From an uncultured Eubacterium sp. (GTDB lineage Bacteria > Bacillota > Clostridia > Lachnospirales > Lachnospiraceae): a stretch of DNA of 64,000 nt. The notes under the pieces are model-generated. The model searched no databases and was not told where the DNA came from. It saw only the letters and a list, made by a program, of their open reading frames with translations. The position numbers were made by a program, and so were the translations under genes. The stretch is taken from positions 504 through 64,503 of the forward strand of contig CANDMI010000011.1 of assembly GCA_947385775.1 (NCBI GenBank), in the 5' to 3' direction. Shown one piece after another: positions 1 to 9,104 of this stretch. Numbering within the stretch: the stretch's first letter is position 1; every line of letters begins with the position of its first letter.

Positions 1-323
1 TAATCGCATTTTGCGTGAGGGCGAGTATCAGCACTCAGATGGGAGGTATTGGTTCCGTTATATTGACGAGGACGGAAAATAGAAAAATGTTTACAGTTGG
101 CGTTGGATAAGAATGACCCCATGCCAAAAGGCAAGAAACGGGAGCCTTCATTGAGAGAAAAAGGCCGATAGAAGCAGATTTATTTGACCACATCGTAACC
201 AATGGCGGCAATTACACGGCGCTGGATCTGGTAGAGAAATATATATCCCTGAAAATAGTAGTCCGCCACAACACAGCTGCCGAATATAAGACAGTCATAA
301 ACGTTTTGAAAAAGGAAGCATTT
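1..323 (+). pseudogene. Degenerate N-terminal fragment of a Tn916-like tyrosine integrase (runs off window start)
   Basis: Manual translation gives NRILREGEYQHSDGRYWFRYIDEDGK*KNVYSWR / DKNDPMPKGKKREPSLREK / IEADLFDHIVTNGGNYTALDLVEKYISLKIVVRHNT...VLKKEAF, collinear with the integrase at 3657-4397 but with an in-frame TAG and frameshifts. Confidence 0.85.
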
Positions 324-337
324 GAGAAGAAATACAA

Positions 338-398
338 AACATTTAAGGAGTTATGAAAAAATGATAAAAATCTTATTTATCTGCCACGGCAATATCTG
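338..398 (+). other. Truncated 5' end of the LMW phosphatase gene (MIKILFICHGNI*) forming the left att junction; core TCTGCCACGGCAA at 380-392
   Basis: AACATTTAAGGAG (338-350) and ATGATAAAAAT (361-371) match 4584-4596 and 4608-4618; the 13-bp core is identical to 4627-4639. Confidence 0.85.
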
Positions 399-584
399 AA
401 CTGCATATCTCCAGTGCCTTTAATATGGGCATATCTATTAAGAATATCACGGTTTATACAACCATTTTACAACTTTTGGAACAGAAAATAATATTTGAGG
501 TATTTAAATTAAGAAAGAAGTCCTGATACGGTAGTTACTGGAAATTAAAAATATATATGGCGGCTTTCGTATGTTGCCTAAATA

Positions 585-593
585 TGCTATAAT
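585..593 (+). promoter_or_regulatory. Extended -10 promoter (TGCTATAAT) for the 617-1477 gene
   Basis: TG-n-TATAAT 23 nt upstream of ATG 617, followed by an AAAGAGG RBS. Confidence 0.55.
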
Positions 594-616
594 CGGAAAT
601 AAGAAAGAGGTATTGG

Positions 617-1477
617 ATGAAAGATATAGACATACAATGGCATCCGGGATTTATAGGCGCAATGAATCTGGAGCTAAAGGAAAACCGGGATGATTTGCTG
701 TTTGAAAAAGAACATAACCTGAATACAAGGCCATTGGAAATTGACCTGCTGGTGATTAAGAAGCAGGCGGGTGTTCAAATTAATAATGAAATAGGCAAAA
801 TATTCAGAGGGCATAATATTTTAGAGTACAAATCTCCGCGGGACGATTTGGATATTGACACTTTCTATAAAGCATCTGCTTACGCCAGCCTTTATAAATC
901 TTATGGAAAAACGCTGGATTCGATTAAAGCAGAAGATGTAACCGTATCTTTGGTCAGGAAGGCAAAACCGTATGGATTATTCCGTTATTTTAAGGAACAT
1001 GATTATCTGATAACGAATCCTTACCGTGGGATATATTATATTGAAGGAAAGGTATTATTTCCGACACAGGTTGTTGTGACAAGGGAGCTGAACCCAATAG
1101 AACATATCTGGTTATCTTCATTATCTGACCAGTTGGAAAAACAAAGATTGCTGGAGCTGTTGGAAGAAATAGGAAAATTGCATGGTAAAGCGGATAAAGA
1201 GTTTGCACAGTCTGTTTTGGAAGTAGGATTTGGGGCAAACAAAAAGATTGTAGAAGAAGTGATAGGAGATGAGAGTATGAGTGAAGAATTACTGGAGATT
1301 TTAAAGCCGATCATAGAACCTAGGATGATTTTGGCAGAGCAGCAGGTACGAAAGGAAGATATAGAAGGGACGGTAAATATACTTCGGAACTTTAGGCACA
1401 GTGATAAAGAAATTAAATGTGCGATCATGGAACAGTATCAGCTGTCAGAAGAAGAAGCAGAATCATACATGAAGTGA
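617..1477 (+). CDS. PD-(D/E)XK nuclease-fold protein, Rpn/YadD-like
   Basis: 286 aa ORF with WHPGF...EIDLLVIKK...ILEYKSP...FYKASAYA nuclease-type motifs and a short helical C-terminus. Confidence 0.65.
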   Translation: MKDIDIQWHPGFIGAMNLELKENRDDLLFEKEHNLNTRPLEIDLLVIKKQAGVQINNEIGKIFRGHNILEYKSPRDDLDIDTFYKASAYASLYKSYGKTLDSIKAEDVTVSLVRKAKPYGLFRYFKEHDYLITNPYRGIYYIEGKVLFPTQVVVTRELNPIEHIWLSSLSDQLEKQRLLELLEEIGKLHGKADKEFAQSVLEVGFGANKKIVEEVIGDESMSEELLEILKPIIEPRMILAEQQVRKEDIEGTVNILRNFRHSDKEIKCAIMEQYQLSEEEAESYMK

Positions 1478-1502
1478 ATTTTTAATGGAGAATGTGGAAA
1501 TA

Positions 1503-1566
1503 CTTGAATACAAGTCACCGAGAGATGAACTGGATATTGACACTTTCTATAAGTCATCGGCTTATG
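1503..1566 (+). pseudogene. 21-codon fragment of a paralog of the 617-1477 gene (LEYKSPRDELDIDTFYKSSAY)
   Basis: Aligns without gaps to 821-883; 19 of 21 residues identical, differences mostly synonymous. Confidence 0.8.
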
Positions 1567-1637
1567 TGAGAAAAGAAATAGAGTGATGGAAATATAGTAA
1601 AAAATAACAGGATTAAAAATTAGGTTCGGTTAGATGG

Positions 1638-1676
1638 AAACAGGACGCATTTGTAATACAAAGCGCCCTGTTTTTT
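1638..1676 (+). terminator. Intrinsic terminator
   Basis: AAACAGGACGC...GCGCCCTGTTTTTT imperfect stem with T-tract. Confidence 0.55.
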
Positions 1677-1788
1677 ATAGCGGAAAAAGCAGCAGGAATT
1701 GTTTTCTATTGTTTGCAGGGGTAAAAAGATTTGGATGGCACAGCGTTGAGAGGCGCATGGCTAAAGCGAAAGACTGCCAAAATCTCCC

Positions 1789-2745
1789 CTATCCGATTTT
1801 CCGTATAGCCGCCTTCCTTATCTCTTGTAAAAGCGCACCTGCTTTTCCCTGCAAATTTGCTACAAGCTCTATCTTCGTACTGTAGTCTGCATTTTTTGCA
1901 TCCTGTTCTTTTAATGCACTGTCAATCTTGGCGCTGCGTTCACTGTATGCCTGTTCCAGCTGCCCTTTAAAGTAGCTTTCCACCTTAAATTGAAAAGCGC
2001 CCATCTGCATAAAAATCTGGTTGTGGAGTTCTTTGAGCGCCATTGCACGCTCCTGTGCATATTCCTCCTGCTGGCGGTTCAGTTCGGAGACATCCGGCAC
2101 ATTTTTACTGCCTTTGCCAAAGATAATATTTTTTAAGAGCTTAACAGCCCCCGCAATAACCGGCAATGGGATTGGGACTGGCAGGGGGGGAGGGGATTAA
2201 AACAGGTATTTTCCCAAGTGTATCAATCAGGCTGTCTATCGTGTCCCCTCTGCCTGGGCTGATGTCAGGGACACTTCTGTTTTGTTTTTCCGGTATATCT
2301 GTCAGGGACAAATCCAGCCTTGAACTTTCTGCAAACTGCTGTAACGCCAGGCTACTGCCTTTGGAAAAACCCTCCATGCATTTTAGCGCAAGTTTTTCAA
2401 TCTCCTGCTCTAATTCCTGTTCTGCTGCATCAATGCTTCTATTTACAGAAGCTTTCTGGTAAATGCGCTCCGAGAAACTGTCCACGGCACTGCCAAGCGC
2501 TACCGAAAATTCCCTGCTGGCGCTTTCTTTCTTTTCGTAAAGCTCCTGCTTTAATTTGCTTAACATTTTGGAGTTGCCATCGTCTATTGCAAGCTCCAGG
2601 CTTTTTTGTATCTGTCCACACAGCCACGCCATATTTTCCAGCGGTGTGCACAGCATTTGTATCGAATCTACCGAAGCGAGCTTGTTTGAGATACAATATT
2701 CCAATTCCCGGATGTTGCTGTCAGCGAGCGTATGTTCTGGTTCAT
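1789..2745 (-). pseudogene. C-terminal remnant of a long coiled-coil protein (possibly dynamin/LeoA-like GTPase family), frameshifted at a G7 tract (2184-2190) and 5'-truncated by an IS fragment
   Basis: ORFs 2141-3109 (3' part) and 1789-2166 join into one frame (...LIPSPLPVPIPLPVIAGAVKLL...) if one G is removed; helical heptad-rich sequence; family assignment is only a resemblance. Confidence 0.4.
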
Positions 2746-2749
2746 GCTT

Positions 2750-3243
2750 GCCAAGAGCGGGAATGGCAGCCGGAGGCTTTTTTTCTGCGCCAAAGACCCA
2801 GAAAGCATCCTTTTGGATTTTGGCAGGTGTGAAGATGAAACCATCCGCAGCTATGGGGAAGAAAACAAAAAGTTCCTCCCGATCGCCTGTTACTCGCCGC
2901 GCTGGAACATTGAAGTATCGTACTACGAAAGCAAGACATTTTGGCCGCTTGGGGAATACCGTGTACGGAGCCGGGAGGGCATTGAGCGTCTGGTAAACCT
3001 TGGCTGCATAGCTTACAGTGCCATGACACTGCTCCCATACAGTGATGAATCCTTTTCGTGCTATCAGTCTGCAAGCGCACAGGAAACCAGATCTGGTATC
3101 GGACAGCAAATACAGGCAAGTATAATATTCAGCAGTTTCGTAGAATCACTCGAAACAGTAAAAAAAGCGCAGTCATTTATTAAAATAATAGAAGGCTACG
3201 TTTTATCAGGGTTCAAAAAAATCCAAAAGTTGTAAACTGGTGT
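2750..3243 (+). mobile_element. 3' fragment of an IS transposase (IS701-like DDE family) with probable terminus
   Basis: RRLFF...YSPRWNIEVSYYESKTFW...RSREGIERLVNL matches the R-W-x-I-E signature region of IS4/IS701-type transposases; N-terminal part absent. Confidence 0.7.
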
Positions 3244-3311
3244 AAAAGAAATATATATTAGAATATTGAAACAGGTAACAATGGAGATTTCTTAGGAAGG
3301 AGTAAAGGATT

Positions 3312-3509
3312 ATGAAAAAAGTACCAATCTGGCAGCGGTATACACTGACAATAGAAGAAGCGGCAGCTTATTTCCGAATTGGGGAAAAGAAATTGCGCCA
3401 AATTGTGGCAGAGGATGAAACTGCGGCGTTTGTCCTTATGAATGGGAACCGGATTCAGATTAAACGCCGCTTATTTGAACAGTATATCGATACAGCTACG
3501 GTAGTTTGA
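3312..3509 (+). CDS. xis: Excisionase, Tn916 Xis-like
   Basis: [26 protein letters not shown]...[11 protein letters not shown] winged-helix pattern, directly upstream of the integrase, AGGAG RBS. Confidence 0.9.
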
Positions 3510-3656
3510 AAGAGATATTGTTGGTAACATCGGTAAAGGGCAAGGCTTTGGCCTGAAATCATACCGTGACAAGAAGCCCTGTATATGGTAAGATAGATGC
3601 AGCCGTATCAGGGCTCCTTATCCTTTTATAATTTAAAGATAGGAGCAAGTGACCTT

Positions 3657-4397
3657 ATGAGTGAAAAAAGACGCGACAACCGCGGTAGAATCCTGCATAA
3701 CGGAGAAAGCCAGCGTTCAGACGGCCGTTATATGTTTAAGTATGTTGACAGCTGTGGACAGGCAAAATATGTTTACAGCTGGCGTCTGGATAAGAATGAC
3801 CGGACTCCGGCAGGGCGGCAGAGGGATTTGTCTTTGCGCGAGAAAGAAAAACAGATAGAGGCAGACCTATTTGACCAGATTATTCCGCAGGGCGGTGATT
3901 TGACTGTGCTTGACTTGATGCGTAAATATATTTCCCTGAAAACAGGAATCCGGCATAATACAGAGGCGGGATACAACTTTGTTATCCATATTCTTGAGAA
4001 AGAGGATTTTGGAAAGAGAAGGATTGACAAGGTCAGGCTGTCAGACGCAAAAGAATTTCTGATTAAGCTTCAGAAGGATGGCAAAGGCTATAGTGCTGTG
4101 AAAACAGTGAGGGGCGTTTTGCGTCCTGCCTTTCAGATGGCTGCCAATGATGACCTGATCCGGAAAAATCCTTTTGGTTTCCAGCTGGCAACGGTCGTGG
4201 TAAATGACAGTGTGACAAGGAAAGCTATCACGATAAAGCAGGAGCGGGATTTTCTGGAATTTGTAAAACAGGATAAGCATTTTTGCAGATATTACGACGG
4301 AATTTATATCCTGTTTTATACAGGGCTTCGCATATCGGAGTTTGTAGGGCTGACGGTTGCGGATATTGACTTGAAAAAAAGGAAGATGCTTTTGTAA
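3657..4397 (+). pseudogene. int: Tn916-like tyrosine integrase, C-terminally truncated (246 aa)
   Basis: MSEKRRDNRGRIL... arm-binding domain, core-binding domain and box I (YTGLRISE) present; ends at DIDLKKRKMLL* without H-x-x-R or the catalytic Tyr. Confidence 0.85.
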
Positions 4398-4457
4398 GGG
4401 CAAAAGGAAAGAAAAAGACGCTAACCCTTTAAAATAGCGGGTTGTACGGCATCAGGG

Positions 4458-4482
4458 TTTACAACTTATTTTACAACTTTTG
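4458..4482 (+). repeat. Tandem arm-type repeats TTTACAACT x2 (right end); counterpart at 455-478 (left end)
   Basis: TTTACAACT at 4458-4466 and 4470-4478; TATACAACC and TTTACAACT at 455-463 and 466-474. Confidence 0.7.
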
Positions 4483-4607
4483 ATGGCTGGGATATGCAGA
4501 TTGCCGCGCATTTATGCAATCAAAGCAGCAGTCCGAAACTATCCGCCGGATGCCGCAAAACCTTGGAAATACAATAAAAAACCAACATTTAAGGAGATAT
4601 GCAGAGC

Positions 4608-5087
4608 ATGATAAAAATACTTTTCGTCTGCCACGGCAACATTTGCAGAAGCCCCATGGCAGAATTTGTAATGAAAAAGATCGTCCAGGATGCGGGTCTT
4701 GCAGACCAGTTTTATATCGCGTCCGCGGCAACCAGCACAGAAGAGATCTGGAATGGAGTCGGAAATCCCGTATACCCGCCCGCAAAAGAAGAGCTTGCCA
4801 GGCATGGGATTTCCTGTGAGGGGAAACGGGCTGTGCAGCTTCAAAAATCCGATTATGACGCTTACGACTATTTGATCGGCATGGACCACAGGAACATTCG
4901 AAATATGGAAAAAATCACCGGGCGCCACGGTGGAAAGATCAAGCTGCTGCTTTCCTATTGCGGAAGAAACGATCCTGTCCAAGATCCATGGTACACCGGA
5001 GATTTTAAAACCGCATACGAAGATGTGCGGGATGGCTGCGAAGGCTTATTCCAATACCTGCAAAGCAATAAAAAATCAAACGCTTAA
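4608..5087 (+). CDS. Low molecular weight protein-tyrosine phosphatase
   Basis: CHGNICRSPMAE P-loop (CX5R) and DPWY motif; start may be 4599 or 4608. Confidence 0.95.
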   Translation: MIKILFVCHGNICRSPMAEFVMKKIVQDAGLADQFYIASAATSTEEIWNGVGNPVYPPAKEELARHGISCEGKRAVQLQKSDYDAYDYLIGMDHRNIRNMEKITGRHGGKIKLLLSYCGRNDPVQDPWYTGDFKTAYEDVRDGCEGLFQYLQSNKKSNA

Positions 5088-5168: not shown

Positions 5169-5642
5169 ATGAAATACACTACCGAAAATGAATTTGAATC
5201 CTTTGATTTTCAGGAAAGCTATGTAAAGGATATCGAGCCTGGAAATGGATATTTCCATATTTGGCTGGATAATGTAAAAATCCTGCCAGAAAACAGCTGC
5301 AACCGGGATATCCGCACAATGCGCACAAATAACCTTCTGCTTGCCGTTTCGGACACAAAAATCGACTCTGTCGTACTGGAAGGCGTAAAAATATATCACG
5401 CAGACGGAAAGCTTGCAAAAGTCCGCCCGGATGAGGAGATCGCGCCTGAAAAATACGCAAAGCTATGGAAAGCGTTCCTTGGCGGATGCATTTATTCTGT
5501 TTCAAAAGATTCAAAAGAACGGCGCAGCGAAAATGCGTACACATTTATCTTAGACACAAACGAGGATGAAACCTATGAGATCAAACTGACCGGAAGCGTC
5601 GATCGGGAATCCTGGGACTTGTTTTTAAATCTTGGCGAATAA
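5169..5642 (+). CDS. Conserved hypothetical protein
   Basis: 157 aa ORF with GGAGG RBS, typical codon pattern; no recognised catalytic motif. Confidence 0.8.
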   Translation: MKYTTENEFESFDFQESYVKDIEPGNGYFHIWLDNVKILPENSCNRDIRTMRTNNLLLAVSDTKIDSVVLEGVKIYHADGKLAKVRPDEEIAPEKYAKLWKAFLGGCIYSVSKDSKERRSENAYTFILDTNEDETYEIKLTGSVDRESWDLFLNLGE

Positions 5643-7831: not shown

Positions 7832-8971
7832 TCAATCGTTTCCAGCAGACATAAGCTCTGACAGCCTATCCATGTTCCTTTGTTTCGCTTCCATCGTCGG
7901 ATGGACATATCGGTCCATCGTAATCCGCACGCTGGCATGTCCTAAGATCTCGCTTAGGGATTTTGCGTCAAATCCAAGCTCCACACATCTTGTGGCAAAC
8001 GTATGGCGCAGCGCATGGAAATTTGCTTTGGAAATGCCGCACTTTTGGATGGCGGCAAGGAAATGGTTTTCCATCGTCCTTGGCTCGATGAATTTTTTTG
8101 GCGATCCGGTTAAAATAAATGCCTCCTGCTCCCCTTTGCGCTCCTTTGCCAAATGGAACACCTTATCTGGAAGCGGAATATATCTGACCGAGCAGATGCT
8201 TTTTGGCTGCGTAACGATTATTTTTGTTTTCTTTCTGCCTCCTTCCTCCGCCGGCACTCTTTCCATTGTCCGATGCACATAAAGCGTTTTTTCTGTAAAT
8301 GAAATATCCTCCCATTTTAACGCGCACAGCTCCCCCAGCCGGATGCCCGTATACAGACAGAGCATGATGCCAAATCCGCTGCCATCCATTTCCTCCGAAA
8401 GATAATCCTCCAGCGTGCGCTGTTCTTTCACGCTTAAGACGCGAAGCGGCCTGCGCGCCTGCTTTACCGGCATGTTCCGCAAATCCGTGACCGTGACGTT
8501 TCCATGTATTTTGGCAAAATCCAAAATCGTTTTTAAAACAGAAAATATCCCGGTGACTGTCTTTGGCGCAAGCCCGCTCTCCTTTTCGCCCTTAGGAGCC
8601 AAAAGCCTTTGTAAGCATTCAACAGCCTTTTCTCTCGTAATCTCTGTAATCAGCATATCCCCAAACTCCGGGATAAGGTAATGGGACAAAATCCCCTCGT
8701 ATTTTGCAATGCTTGTTTCTTTTAAAATCGGCTTTTGGGTTTCCATCCACTTTTCCGCAACTACCGCAAATAGCAGCTCTCCTCTTTTCCTACTTTTGTG
8801 CGTGCCAGTTTGCATCGCCTTTATAGCCTCATGCTTTTTCCTTAGCGTCTCTTCATAGCTTTTCCCGGAAACGTAGCCATAACGGATTTTGCCATCCACC
8901 CTGCATTTTACATATTTTCCTTCCCATCTTCCATTTTTCCTGCAATAAATATTTTCTCCTCTTCTTGCCAT
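7832..8971 (-). CDS. Tyrosine recombinase/site-specific integrase, intact
   Basis: MARRGENIYCRKNGRWEG arm domain; YTGIRLGE box I; HALRHTFAT...LGHASVRITMDRYVH box II with H-x-x-R, H and Y. Confidence 0.93.
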   Translation of the reverse strand: MARRGENIYCRKNGRWEGKYVKCRVDGKIRYGYVSGKSYEETLRKKHEAIKAMQTGTHKSRKRGELLFAVVAEKWMETQKPILKETSIAKYEGILSHYLIPEFGDMLITEITREKAVECLQRLLAPKGEKESGLAPKTVTGIFSVLKTILDFAKIHGNVTVTDLRNMPVKQARRPLRVLSVKEQRTLEDYLSEEMDGSGFGIMLCLYTGIRLGELCALKWEDISFTEKTLYVHRTMERVPAEEGGRKKTKIIVTQPKSICSVRYIPLPDKVFHLAKERKGEQEAFILTGSPKKFIEPRTMENHFLAAIQKCGISKANFHALRHTFATRCVELGFDAKSLSEILGHASVRITMDRYVHPTMEAKQRNMDRLSELMSAGND

Positions 8972-9104
8972 ATTTCTATGACCTCCTTTATCTTTTGTAA
9001 TTATTACAGGTACTATTTTGACAGAATCCATCTAAGACTACAGCGCTTAGAAACCGCTCCAAAATAAAAAACTTCCGCCCGTCTGGAAGATGAAAACAGC
9101 AAAA

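Follow-up and report, generated by a model that had tools for sequence, protein, structure and literature searches.

The start of a low-molecular-weight phosphatase gene as the probable attachment site of a Tn916/Tn1549-type integrase clade in gut Clostridia

In the assembly GCA_947385775.1 of an uncultured Eubacterium sp., we analyzed a stretch of 64,000 nucleotides, hereafter the window, which begins 503 bp into contig CANDMI010000011.1 (C11) and in which the start of a low-molecular-weight protein-tyrosine phosphatase (LMW-PTP) gene is present twice, on either side of the remains of an integrase-bearing element. The 13-mer TCTGCCACGGCAA, which encodes part of the catalytic phosphate-binding loop (P-loop), is located at 380-392 and 4627-4639 on the + strand and has no other exact copy in the 3.98-Mb assembly. 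When up to one mismatch was allowed, three matches were found in the window, while shuffled windows gave 0.12 on average and never reached three in 100 shuffles. Both copies are preceded by AACATTTAAGGAG (338-350 and 4584-4596) and by ATGATAAAAAT (361-371 and 4608-4618), an arrangement that an initial annotation of this DNA had pointed out and whose coordinates were confirmed. The likeness spans approximately 60 nt, exceeding the 13 bp: 361-398 and 4608-4645 share 82% identity, 327-355 and 4573-4601 share 79%, and a blastn search against the genome gave 62 nt at 80.6% identity (E 4.5e-8).

The left head (338-399, + strand) is an orphan, in which a ribosome-binding site (RBS), AAGGAG at 345-350, precedes a 12-codon open reading frame (ORF; 361-399) that starts with ATG at 361, encodes MIKILFICHGNI and ends with a stop codon at 397-399. 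The right head (4584-4625, + strand), with its RBS AAGGAG at 4591-4596, its ATG at 4608 and codons 1-6 (MIKILF), opens an intact LMW-PTP gene of 159 amino acids (4608-5087, + strand; Pfam LMWPc, E 6.2e-33), whose product has a CHGNICRS P-loop and a DPWY acid loop. The only NCBIfam models matched by this phosphatase were those of Wzb/ArsC, weakly and always under the cutoff. No third phosphatase-head stub was found in a six-frame scan of the genome.

The interval between the two heads is occupied by an element that we call E2 (approximately 387-4625), and on its right side an integrase remnant is followed by a repeat pair (4457-4482), a spacer of approximately 100 bp and the RBS, after which comes the phosphatase gene. 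An intact Tn916-type excisionase gene, xis, encoding 65 amino acids (3312-3509, + strand; Pfam Tn916-Xis PF09035, E 2.5e-25), precedes the incomplete integrase gene, int (3657-4397, + strand), which retains the arm-binding and core-binding domains and the codon of the first catalytic Arg (Integrase_DNA PF02920, E 3.9e-32 for ORF 3597-4397). Phage_integrase is covered only at positions 3-57 of 172; compared with full-length relatives, approximately 150 amino acids with the remaining catalytic residues have been deleted, and no complete R-K-H-R-H/W-Y domain is left.

A second and probably older remnant, E1, lies at 1-330 (+ strand), where a three-frame translation reveals a Tn916-type int pseudogene that covers approximately amino acids 10-115 with stops and frameshifts. 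Positions 83-289 share 68% DNA identity with the E2 int at 3765-3976, and a remnant of the E1 xis is present outside the window, just upstream (contig C11, approximately 340-420). The pseudogene is cut at approximately 327-333 (about residue 115) and is fused directly to the RBS region of the left stub. Because this frameshifted remnant runs straight into its RBS, the left stub is a head supplied by E1, serving as the left attachment site (attL) of E2, and is not the native gene head, which therefore lies outside the window. The initial annotation had regarded the 12-residue orphan ORF as what the arrival of E2 left behind; this stands as far as the stub is concerned, though not for the origin of its head, which E1 supplied. 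A similar int remnant in another genome (G013) shows no DNA homology to that of E1 past the head, and the two are therefore independent.

Integrase relatives and the boundary between element and host gene

One genome per species was scanned with an alignment of the integrases of the window and of Eubacterium plexicaudatum ASF492 (G014), which belongs to the same genus; 80 loci with integrases of 52-100% identity were obtained, in Lachnospiraceae, Oscillospiraceae, Enterocloster, Blautia, Ruminococcus and other hosts. In 79 of these loci, a phosphatase head, M(I/V/T)K(I/V)LF(V/I)C..., with its RBS and ATG follows int at a distance of 150-400 bp. Approximately 57 of the 79 heads open intact phosphatases of 148-161 amino acids, and the other 22 are stubs of 13-51 codons. 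The arrangement of the window, in which a Tn916-type xis-int pair immediately precedes the phosphatase head, is thus the rule among loci with related integrases, and the 22 stubs behind int are what the initial annotation had advised searching for in Lachnospiraceae, namely short head ORFs beside Tn916-like int genes.

The sole exception was found in a Clostridiales metagenome-assembled genome (L097:5935-9246, JALFUW010000003.1), where an integrase of 56% identity is located approximately 280 bp upstream of lepA; no second lepA stub was present within 6 kb upstream. The codons of the lepA G1 motif in this genome read GACCACGGCAAG, and CCACGGCAA is common to lepA and the phosphatase core, so that this locus may represent a jump of target. 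Additionally, in the phosphatase gene behind int at L074:5359, the sequence is MIKILFICLGNICRS, so that the P-loop His is replaced by Leu (TGCTTAGGC); therefore, the core of the site varies in at least one host.

Unlike the int of the window, those of the relatives encode a complete catalytic domain, as in the 418-amino-acid int ORF of ASF492. A 399-amino-acid query from this ORF matched the Tn1549 integrase structure 6EMY over residues 69-383 with approximately 48% identity (E 3.7e-88), and residues 3-44 matched PDB 1B69/1BB8, the arm-binding domain of Tn916 Int. The low target specificity that is a feature of Tn916 and Tn1549 was not observed, since 79 of the 80 loci are at the phosphatase head, and the clade is a site-specific branch of the Tn916/Tn1549 family.

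Behind the int stop codon, the relatives carry two TTTAC-type direct repeats with the same layout and place as the right repeat pair of E2 (4457-4482, + strand), which reads GTTTACAACT-TA-TTTTACAACT-TTTG and has the same repeat unit as a pair at 451-480. This second pair, GGTTTATACAACC-ATTTTACAACTTTTGGA, closes the left end of E2 (387-480, + strand), which begins with CGGCAATATCTGAACTGCATATCTCC. The unit differs by element, being TTTACTAA, TTTACAGA, TTTACCAAT, ACTACACC or ACTACG in the relatives and TTTACAACT in the window. These pairs are probably arm-type sites for the N-terminal domain of the integrase, a reading supported by the match of this domain to Tn916 Int-DNA structures. The left end of E2, including the repeat pair and ORF 617-1477, shares 79% identity over 1040 bp with the left end of an element that follows a stub in another genome of the genus (L027 in G004).

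The 60 nt before the ATG are near-invariant among elements of very different hosts, while the gene body differs. In 179 loose pairs, defined as right ends at least 95% identical in different hosts, the third-codon mismatch was 0.28 at +3 to +20, 0.16 at +21 to +29, 0.50 at +30 to +38 and 0.68 beyond, and the third positions of int in the same pairs had a mismatch of 0.20. In 21 strict pairs, at least 97.5% identical over 780 bp and located in different contexts, the copies were identical from -20 to +17; some pairs differed at +18 and +20 and a single pair at +26, every pair differed at +29-32 and beyond, and the phosphatase genes of these pairs were only 53-61% identical from +45 on. Stubs depart from the gene sequence after TGCCA, CACG, CACGG or CACGGCA(A). 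The strict pairs and these points of departure bound the crossover to approximately 8 bp, RTCTGCCA (+18 to +25). Based on this comparison of near-identical elements across contexts, the putative crossover copies of the window are ATCTGCCA at 379-386 (+ strand), which runs from codon 7 through the catalytic Cys codon to the second base of the His codon, and GTCTGCCA at 4626-4633 (+ strand). Cleavage would take place within RTCTGCCA, and the occasional swap at +18 or +20 is probably the trace expected of a mismatch-tolerant overlap region. The 13-bp core had been proposed as the exchange site; the crossover does fall there, in a narrower segment of approximately 8 bp that lies largely within the 13-mer.

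Given this boundary, everything up to and including codon 6 (promoter-proximal DNA, RBS, ATG and codons 1-6) comes from the element, codons 7-9, with that of the catalytic Cys, fall in the overlap, and the rest of the gene is provided by the host, in the window from approximately 4634 on. The sequence from int through base +17 moves with the element and the remainder is host-specific, as anticipated by the proposal that the element carries its own RBS, start and first codons. Copies of the gene head stand as direct repeats at the two junctions, and int lies next to the one from which the rest of the gene continues; the rebuilt head moves together with the element, and the gene body goes with the host. 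The related proposal that each arrival swaps the expression signals of the phosphatase holds at the level of the DNA sequence only. A promoter scan from int to the gene returned no consensus promoter and a site count not above chance; for the transcript start of the phosphatase, one metatranscriptome gave only 31-nt pieces of the conserved head.

Recombination at or near the start codon, with an element left end that carries a 25-30-bp mimic of the head, would place the boundary differently. Among right ends at least 95% identical, the mismatch at synonymous sites between +5 and +20 is 25-44%, and stubs with the same left-end type behind them often share +5 to +28, as such a mimic would predict. 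Nevertheless, this mismatch equals the neutral divergence of the same pairs (0.20 at int third positions), the strict pairs are identical to +17, and codon 4 (ATA or GTN) follows the upstream element type in stubs and genes alike, which makes this alternative improbable. A crossover at the start codon was rejected after the stricter pairing.

Tandem arrays, occupancy and alternative explanations

On one contig of ASF492, stubs at 357.5 and 396.6 kb are followed by the gene at 415.5 kb, and the 39-kb and 19-kb intervals each end in xis and a full-length int (425 and 418 amino acids, respectively), 160-390 bp before the next head. The integrases of the window and of these two intervals are only 48-50% identical to one another, yet they use the same site. 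A DNA search of 40 relatives gave extra gene-head matches of 30-45 nt in several genomes of the genus. In a sample of one genome per Lachnospiraceae genus (n = 201), a strict 29-nt head pattern was found in 96 genera, and the reversed pattern, used as a control, in none; 2-4 head copies are present in 24 of the 96, and in 17 of these 24 the copies are located on the same contig and strand, 0.9-23 kb apart. The idea that stubs mark tandem arrivals is borne out by the ASF492 array and by the multi-copy heads of these 24 genera.

Every evaluable phosphatase locus of the window's genus has, upstream of the gene, either int, whole or as a remnant, or the right end of an element. Among 20 single-copy loci of other genera, int or a remnant is upstream of the gene in 10, and integrase-less cargo cassettes are directly upstream of the head in four (L111, L113, L122 and L128, in G133, G216, G237 and G232, respectively). 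The cargo of these cassettes, named by eye, comprises an AlbA_2-like ATPase, an AbiEi/AbiEii-like pair and, in two cases, unknown ORFs; arm-type repeat pairs are clear in L113 and L122 and weaker in L128, and none was noted for L111. At another locus, L110, the gene stands behind a ribose operon and a membrane-protein gene with a 63-bp spacer and no int, and this looks like the only probable never-occupied site seen.

The cargo of the 19-kb ASF492 element includes three insertion sequence (IS) elements along with genes for a DnaC-like ATPase, a histidine kinase and an ABC transporter, with no conjugation family among the ten largest ORFs, which were those scanned, and the 39-kb element carries a terminase-like ORF. 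GenBank phage records of 'Ca. Heliusvirales' have integrases of 70-78% identity and the same junction. From these records, the ASF492 elements and the cassettes, it follows that phages, non-conjugative islands and integrase-less cassettes share the site. One 'complete genome', PV036456.1 (L132:1-380, Monoglobales phage CHVD 5762), ends with the element right end and the first 380 nt of the host LMW-PTP gene, a piece annotated only as 'similar to hypothetical protein'; this prophage was therefore excised in silico together with its right attachment site (attR).

We consider it probable, at approximately 0.88, that a large clade of Tn916/Tn1549-type tyrosine integrases uses the start of the LMW-PTP gene as its attachment site in the chromosome, with each element bringing a new head. 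Elements of this clade carry xis-int at one end, followed by the putative arm-type repeat pair, an RBS, an ATG and the first six phosphatase codons. According to this model, recombination would take place in the approximately 8 bp RTCTGCCA, from codon 7 into the catalytic Cys codon. Once an element has integrated, the gene would continue from the element-borne head, and the displaced head would remain at the far junction as a stub of 12-50 codons; later arrivals would reuse the rebuilt site, giving rise to tandem arrays. The window contains two stacked dead elements: E1, of which an int pseudogene was joined to its gene head by a deletion, and E2, which has lost the catalytic domain of its int, gained an IS701 fragment and retained only fragments of its cargo. 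The data show the anatomy, the linkage to int, the boundary between element and host, and the arrays; we infer the cleavage positions, the arm-site role of the repeats, the order of arrival and any effect on phosphatase expression.

If the phosphatase gene were instead cargo of the element end, with no chromosomal target, it would be expected always beside int, as it is, and in the genus no site was found without element DNA upstream. Nevertheless, elements at least 97.5% identical precede phosphatases that are 53-61% identical from +45, the L110 gene lies 63 bp behind the ribose-operon neighborhood without int, and the stubs show the element end inside the gene; we thus regard this explanation as very unlikely, and the data point to a phosphatase phylogeny that tracks the host rather than the integrase. 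Hardly any weight can be given to an origin of the two heads by local duplication or IS-mediated rearrangement of the phosphatase gene rather than by site-specific integration, which would agree with the IS701 fragment inside the interval and the resemblance of its terminal repeat to 461-480, but not with a junction that recurs at the same bases behind int at 79 of 80 loci in many genera, with a duplicated part restricted to the head (approximately 60 nt), or with flanks consisting of an int remnant on the left and an element left end conserved in another genome on the right.

Several observations weigh against the attachment-site interpretation. We found no two isogenic genomes of which one has and the other lacks 393-4626, all evaluable genomes of the genus being occupied; mouse-gut metagenome contigs of the organism show the same structure and no joint of 392 to 4627; and, for any element, neither a circular attP form nor an empty site was seen in the assembled public contigs, which contain array variants only. 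Just one site, L110, is likely never to have been occupied. The cleavage positions are deduced from sequence comparison, and a live element of the E2 type is unsampled, as the closest intact integrase is 67% identical. Finally, the second unit of the left repeat of E2 (461-480) matches the terminal repeat of an IS701-family element at 19 of 20 positions.

Concerning this last point, ACCAGTTTACAACTTTTGGA is the terminal inverted repeat of an IS701-family element (3222-3241, and in the intact copy at G000:C131:1086-2548), and IS ends of a similar kind are found at several contig ends in the genome. It is conceivable that 451-480 includes an IS end. We considered 461-480 and 3222-3241 as the two ends of a single 2.8-kb IS, which was rejected in part, 3222-3241 being a true IS701 end; the pair at 451-480, however, is conserved with the element left end in G004 and has the arm-repeat layout of the relatives. 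Coincidence, IS targeting of arm sites or a common origin are possible explanations for the likeness of ACCAGTTTACAACTTTTGGA to the arm repeat.

Decay and cargo of E2

Among 40 related genomes, the closest intact relatives of the E2 integrase share 67% identity with it, and no second Tn916-type int was found elsewhere in the 96%-complete assembly. E2 is inactive because its int is devoid of the catalytic domain and the genome has no cognate int; no integrase of this genome is able to move it. No relaxase, coupling-protein or VirB4 family was detected within 393-4626, that is, there is no conjugation module of an integrative and conjugative element (ICE). Having kept attL and attR and lost its integrase and transfer genes, E2 is a fossil with both ends and xis, formally resembling a cis-mobilizable element (CIME); a neighbor with a matching integrase that could mobilize it was not found, E1 being a pseudogene remnant. 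The description of 393-4626 as an integrative element in the initial annotation is supported by the element ends and the xis-int anatomy, with the correction that the element is no longer active.

The first cargo ORF (617-1477, + strand) encodes 286 amino acids and has a partial second copy at 1500-1585. Neither this ORF nor ORF 5169-5642 matched a family in Pfam, NCBIfam or PADLOC, and a D...EYK motif in the former tentatively suggests a PD-(D/E)XK nuclease. Paralogues of ORF 617-1477 are present on contigs C43 and C81 of G000 (65-76% DNA identity), and a homologue is found at the element left end in G004; together they may constitute a small multi-copy family of nuclease-like genes. On the - strand, 1789-2741 corresponds to the 3′ part of a gene weakly similar to the dynamin-like LeoBC of the Eleos defense system (PADLOC, E 1.5e-6), whose 5′ end is cut by an IS fragment. 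A poly-G tract at approximately 2178-2184 splits this frame, and contigs from three mouse-gut metagenomes have one G fewer, which would fuse ORFs 1789-2166 and 2141-3109 (- strand); either an assembly error or a variable tract would account for this. The IS701-family fragment (2742-3241, + strand; NCBIfam IS701, E 2.8e-24) comprises the C-terminal part of the transposase, matching positions 273-409 of the 412-position profile, together with the terminal inverted repeat (3222-3241), and it shares 83.6% identity with the intact copy at G000:C131:1086-2548. An unrelated tyrosine integrase of 399 amino acids (7832-9031, - strand; Phage_integrase, SAM_3, Phage_int_M), encoded 2.7 kb downstream of the phosphatase gene, possibly marks another integrated element.

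Significance and comparison with known systems

The window copy is a decayed two-unit array from which nothing mechanistically new can be learned. For the clade as a whole, the finding provides a precise and very widely used attachment site in the Clostridia of the gut, among them Lachnospiraceae of mouse and human, Oscillospiraceae and others, that helps to delimit prophages, islands and defense cassettes in fragmented assemblies, and it explains the recurrent 'phosphatase-like' mini-ORFs of 12-50 codons and the contig breaks at this gene. It also yields a naturally occurring set of site-specific integrases related to that of Tn1549, an enzyme of solved structure and low specificity, in which the origin of target specificity could be studied, and it raises the question of whether a conserved signaling phosphatase is expressed from mobile-element signals throughout a genus.

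A broader and rather doubtful proposal is that the phosphatase head might be a family-wide reusable docking platform, with a role like that of a tRNA hot spot or an integron attI, in which a whole radiation of Tn916/Tn1549-type integrases keeps one core (RTCTGCCA-CGGCA, at the catalytic Cys codon) while the 'address' in the arms diversifies (TTTACAACT, TTTACTAA, TTTACAGA, TTTACCAAT, ACTACACC, ACTACG). If this were true, prophages, islands and integrase-less defense cassettes could stack and excise independently; in whole genera, the phosphatase would now owe its promoter, RBS and first codons to mobile elements, with each arrival rewiring expression; and the lepA case would illustrate, through the CCACGGCAA that both genes have, how such a clade moves to another target.

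A full-text literature search returned no report of a phosphatase gene as an attachment site, although such an absence is not proof. Tn916 and Tn1549 show little specificity for their insertion sites, which are AT-rich and bent, and they accept coupling sequences that form a heteroduplex; the DR2 arm site of Tn916 contains TTTACTA. The elements described here share with these two (structures 1B69/1TN9 and 6EMY-6EN2) the layout of Integrase_DNA and catalytic domains, a Tn916-type Xis, approximately 48% identity to Tn1549 Int and TTTAC-type repeats at both element ends. In contrast to Tn916 and Tn1549, 79 of the 80 loci of the present clade are at a single site.

Decay of resident elements at a shared site has been described for ICESt1 and ICESt3 at fda of Streptococcus thermophilus, where tandem accretion and CIMEs occur (Pavlovic 2004; Bellanger 2011; reviewed in PMC5704250). 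As in that system, residents decay to units with attL and attR and without an integrase, a pattern that E2 fits. However, the fda site is at the 3′ end of its gene, while the site here is at the 5′ end, so that every unit brings translation start signals, and there is no helper element in the genome.

Integration at the 5′ ends of genes is also known. In Streptococcus pyogenes, SpyCI is inserted in the 5′ end of mutL and can govern mutL expression (cited in PMC4701971); it is likewise an element in a gene 5′ end, but it blocks expression until excision, whereas the elements described here restore a complete ORF that has an RBS of its own. A parallel in layout is found in streptococcal ICEs with site-specific tyrosine integrases, which target the 5′ ends of ftsK, rbgA and ebfC (Ambroset et al. 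2016, PMC4701971). In both cases, a conserved 5′ gene end is targeted, the N-terminus is kept and direct repeats cover the gene start and its upstream region; in some of the streptococcal cases, the upstream region including the promoter is replaced by element DNA, as in the elements studied here. The differences lie in the phosphatase target, the gut Clostridia as hosts, the crossover at a catalytic-site codon, the carriers, which include prophages, non-conjugative islands and integrase-less cassettes, and the near-universal occupancy within a genus with arrays of up to 3-4 units. The phosphatase gene start is thus a new target and not a new mechanism, since integration at 5′ ends and tandem accretion were already known in streptococci.

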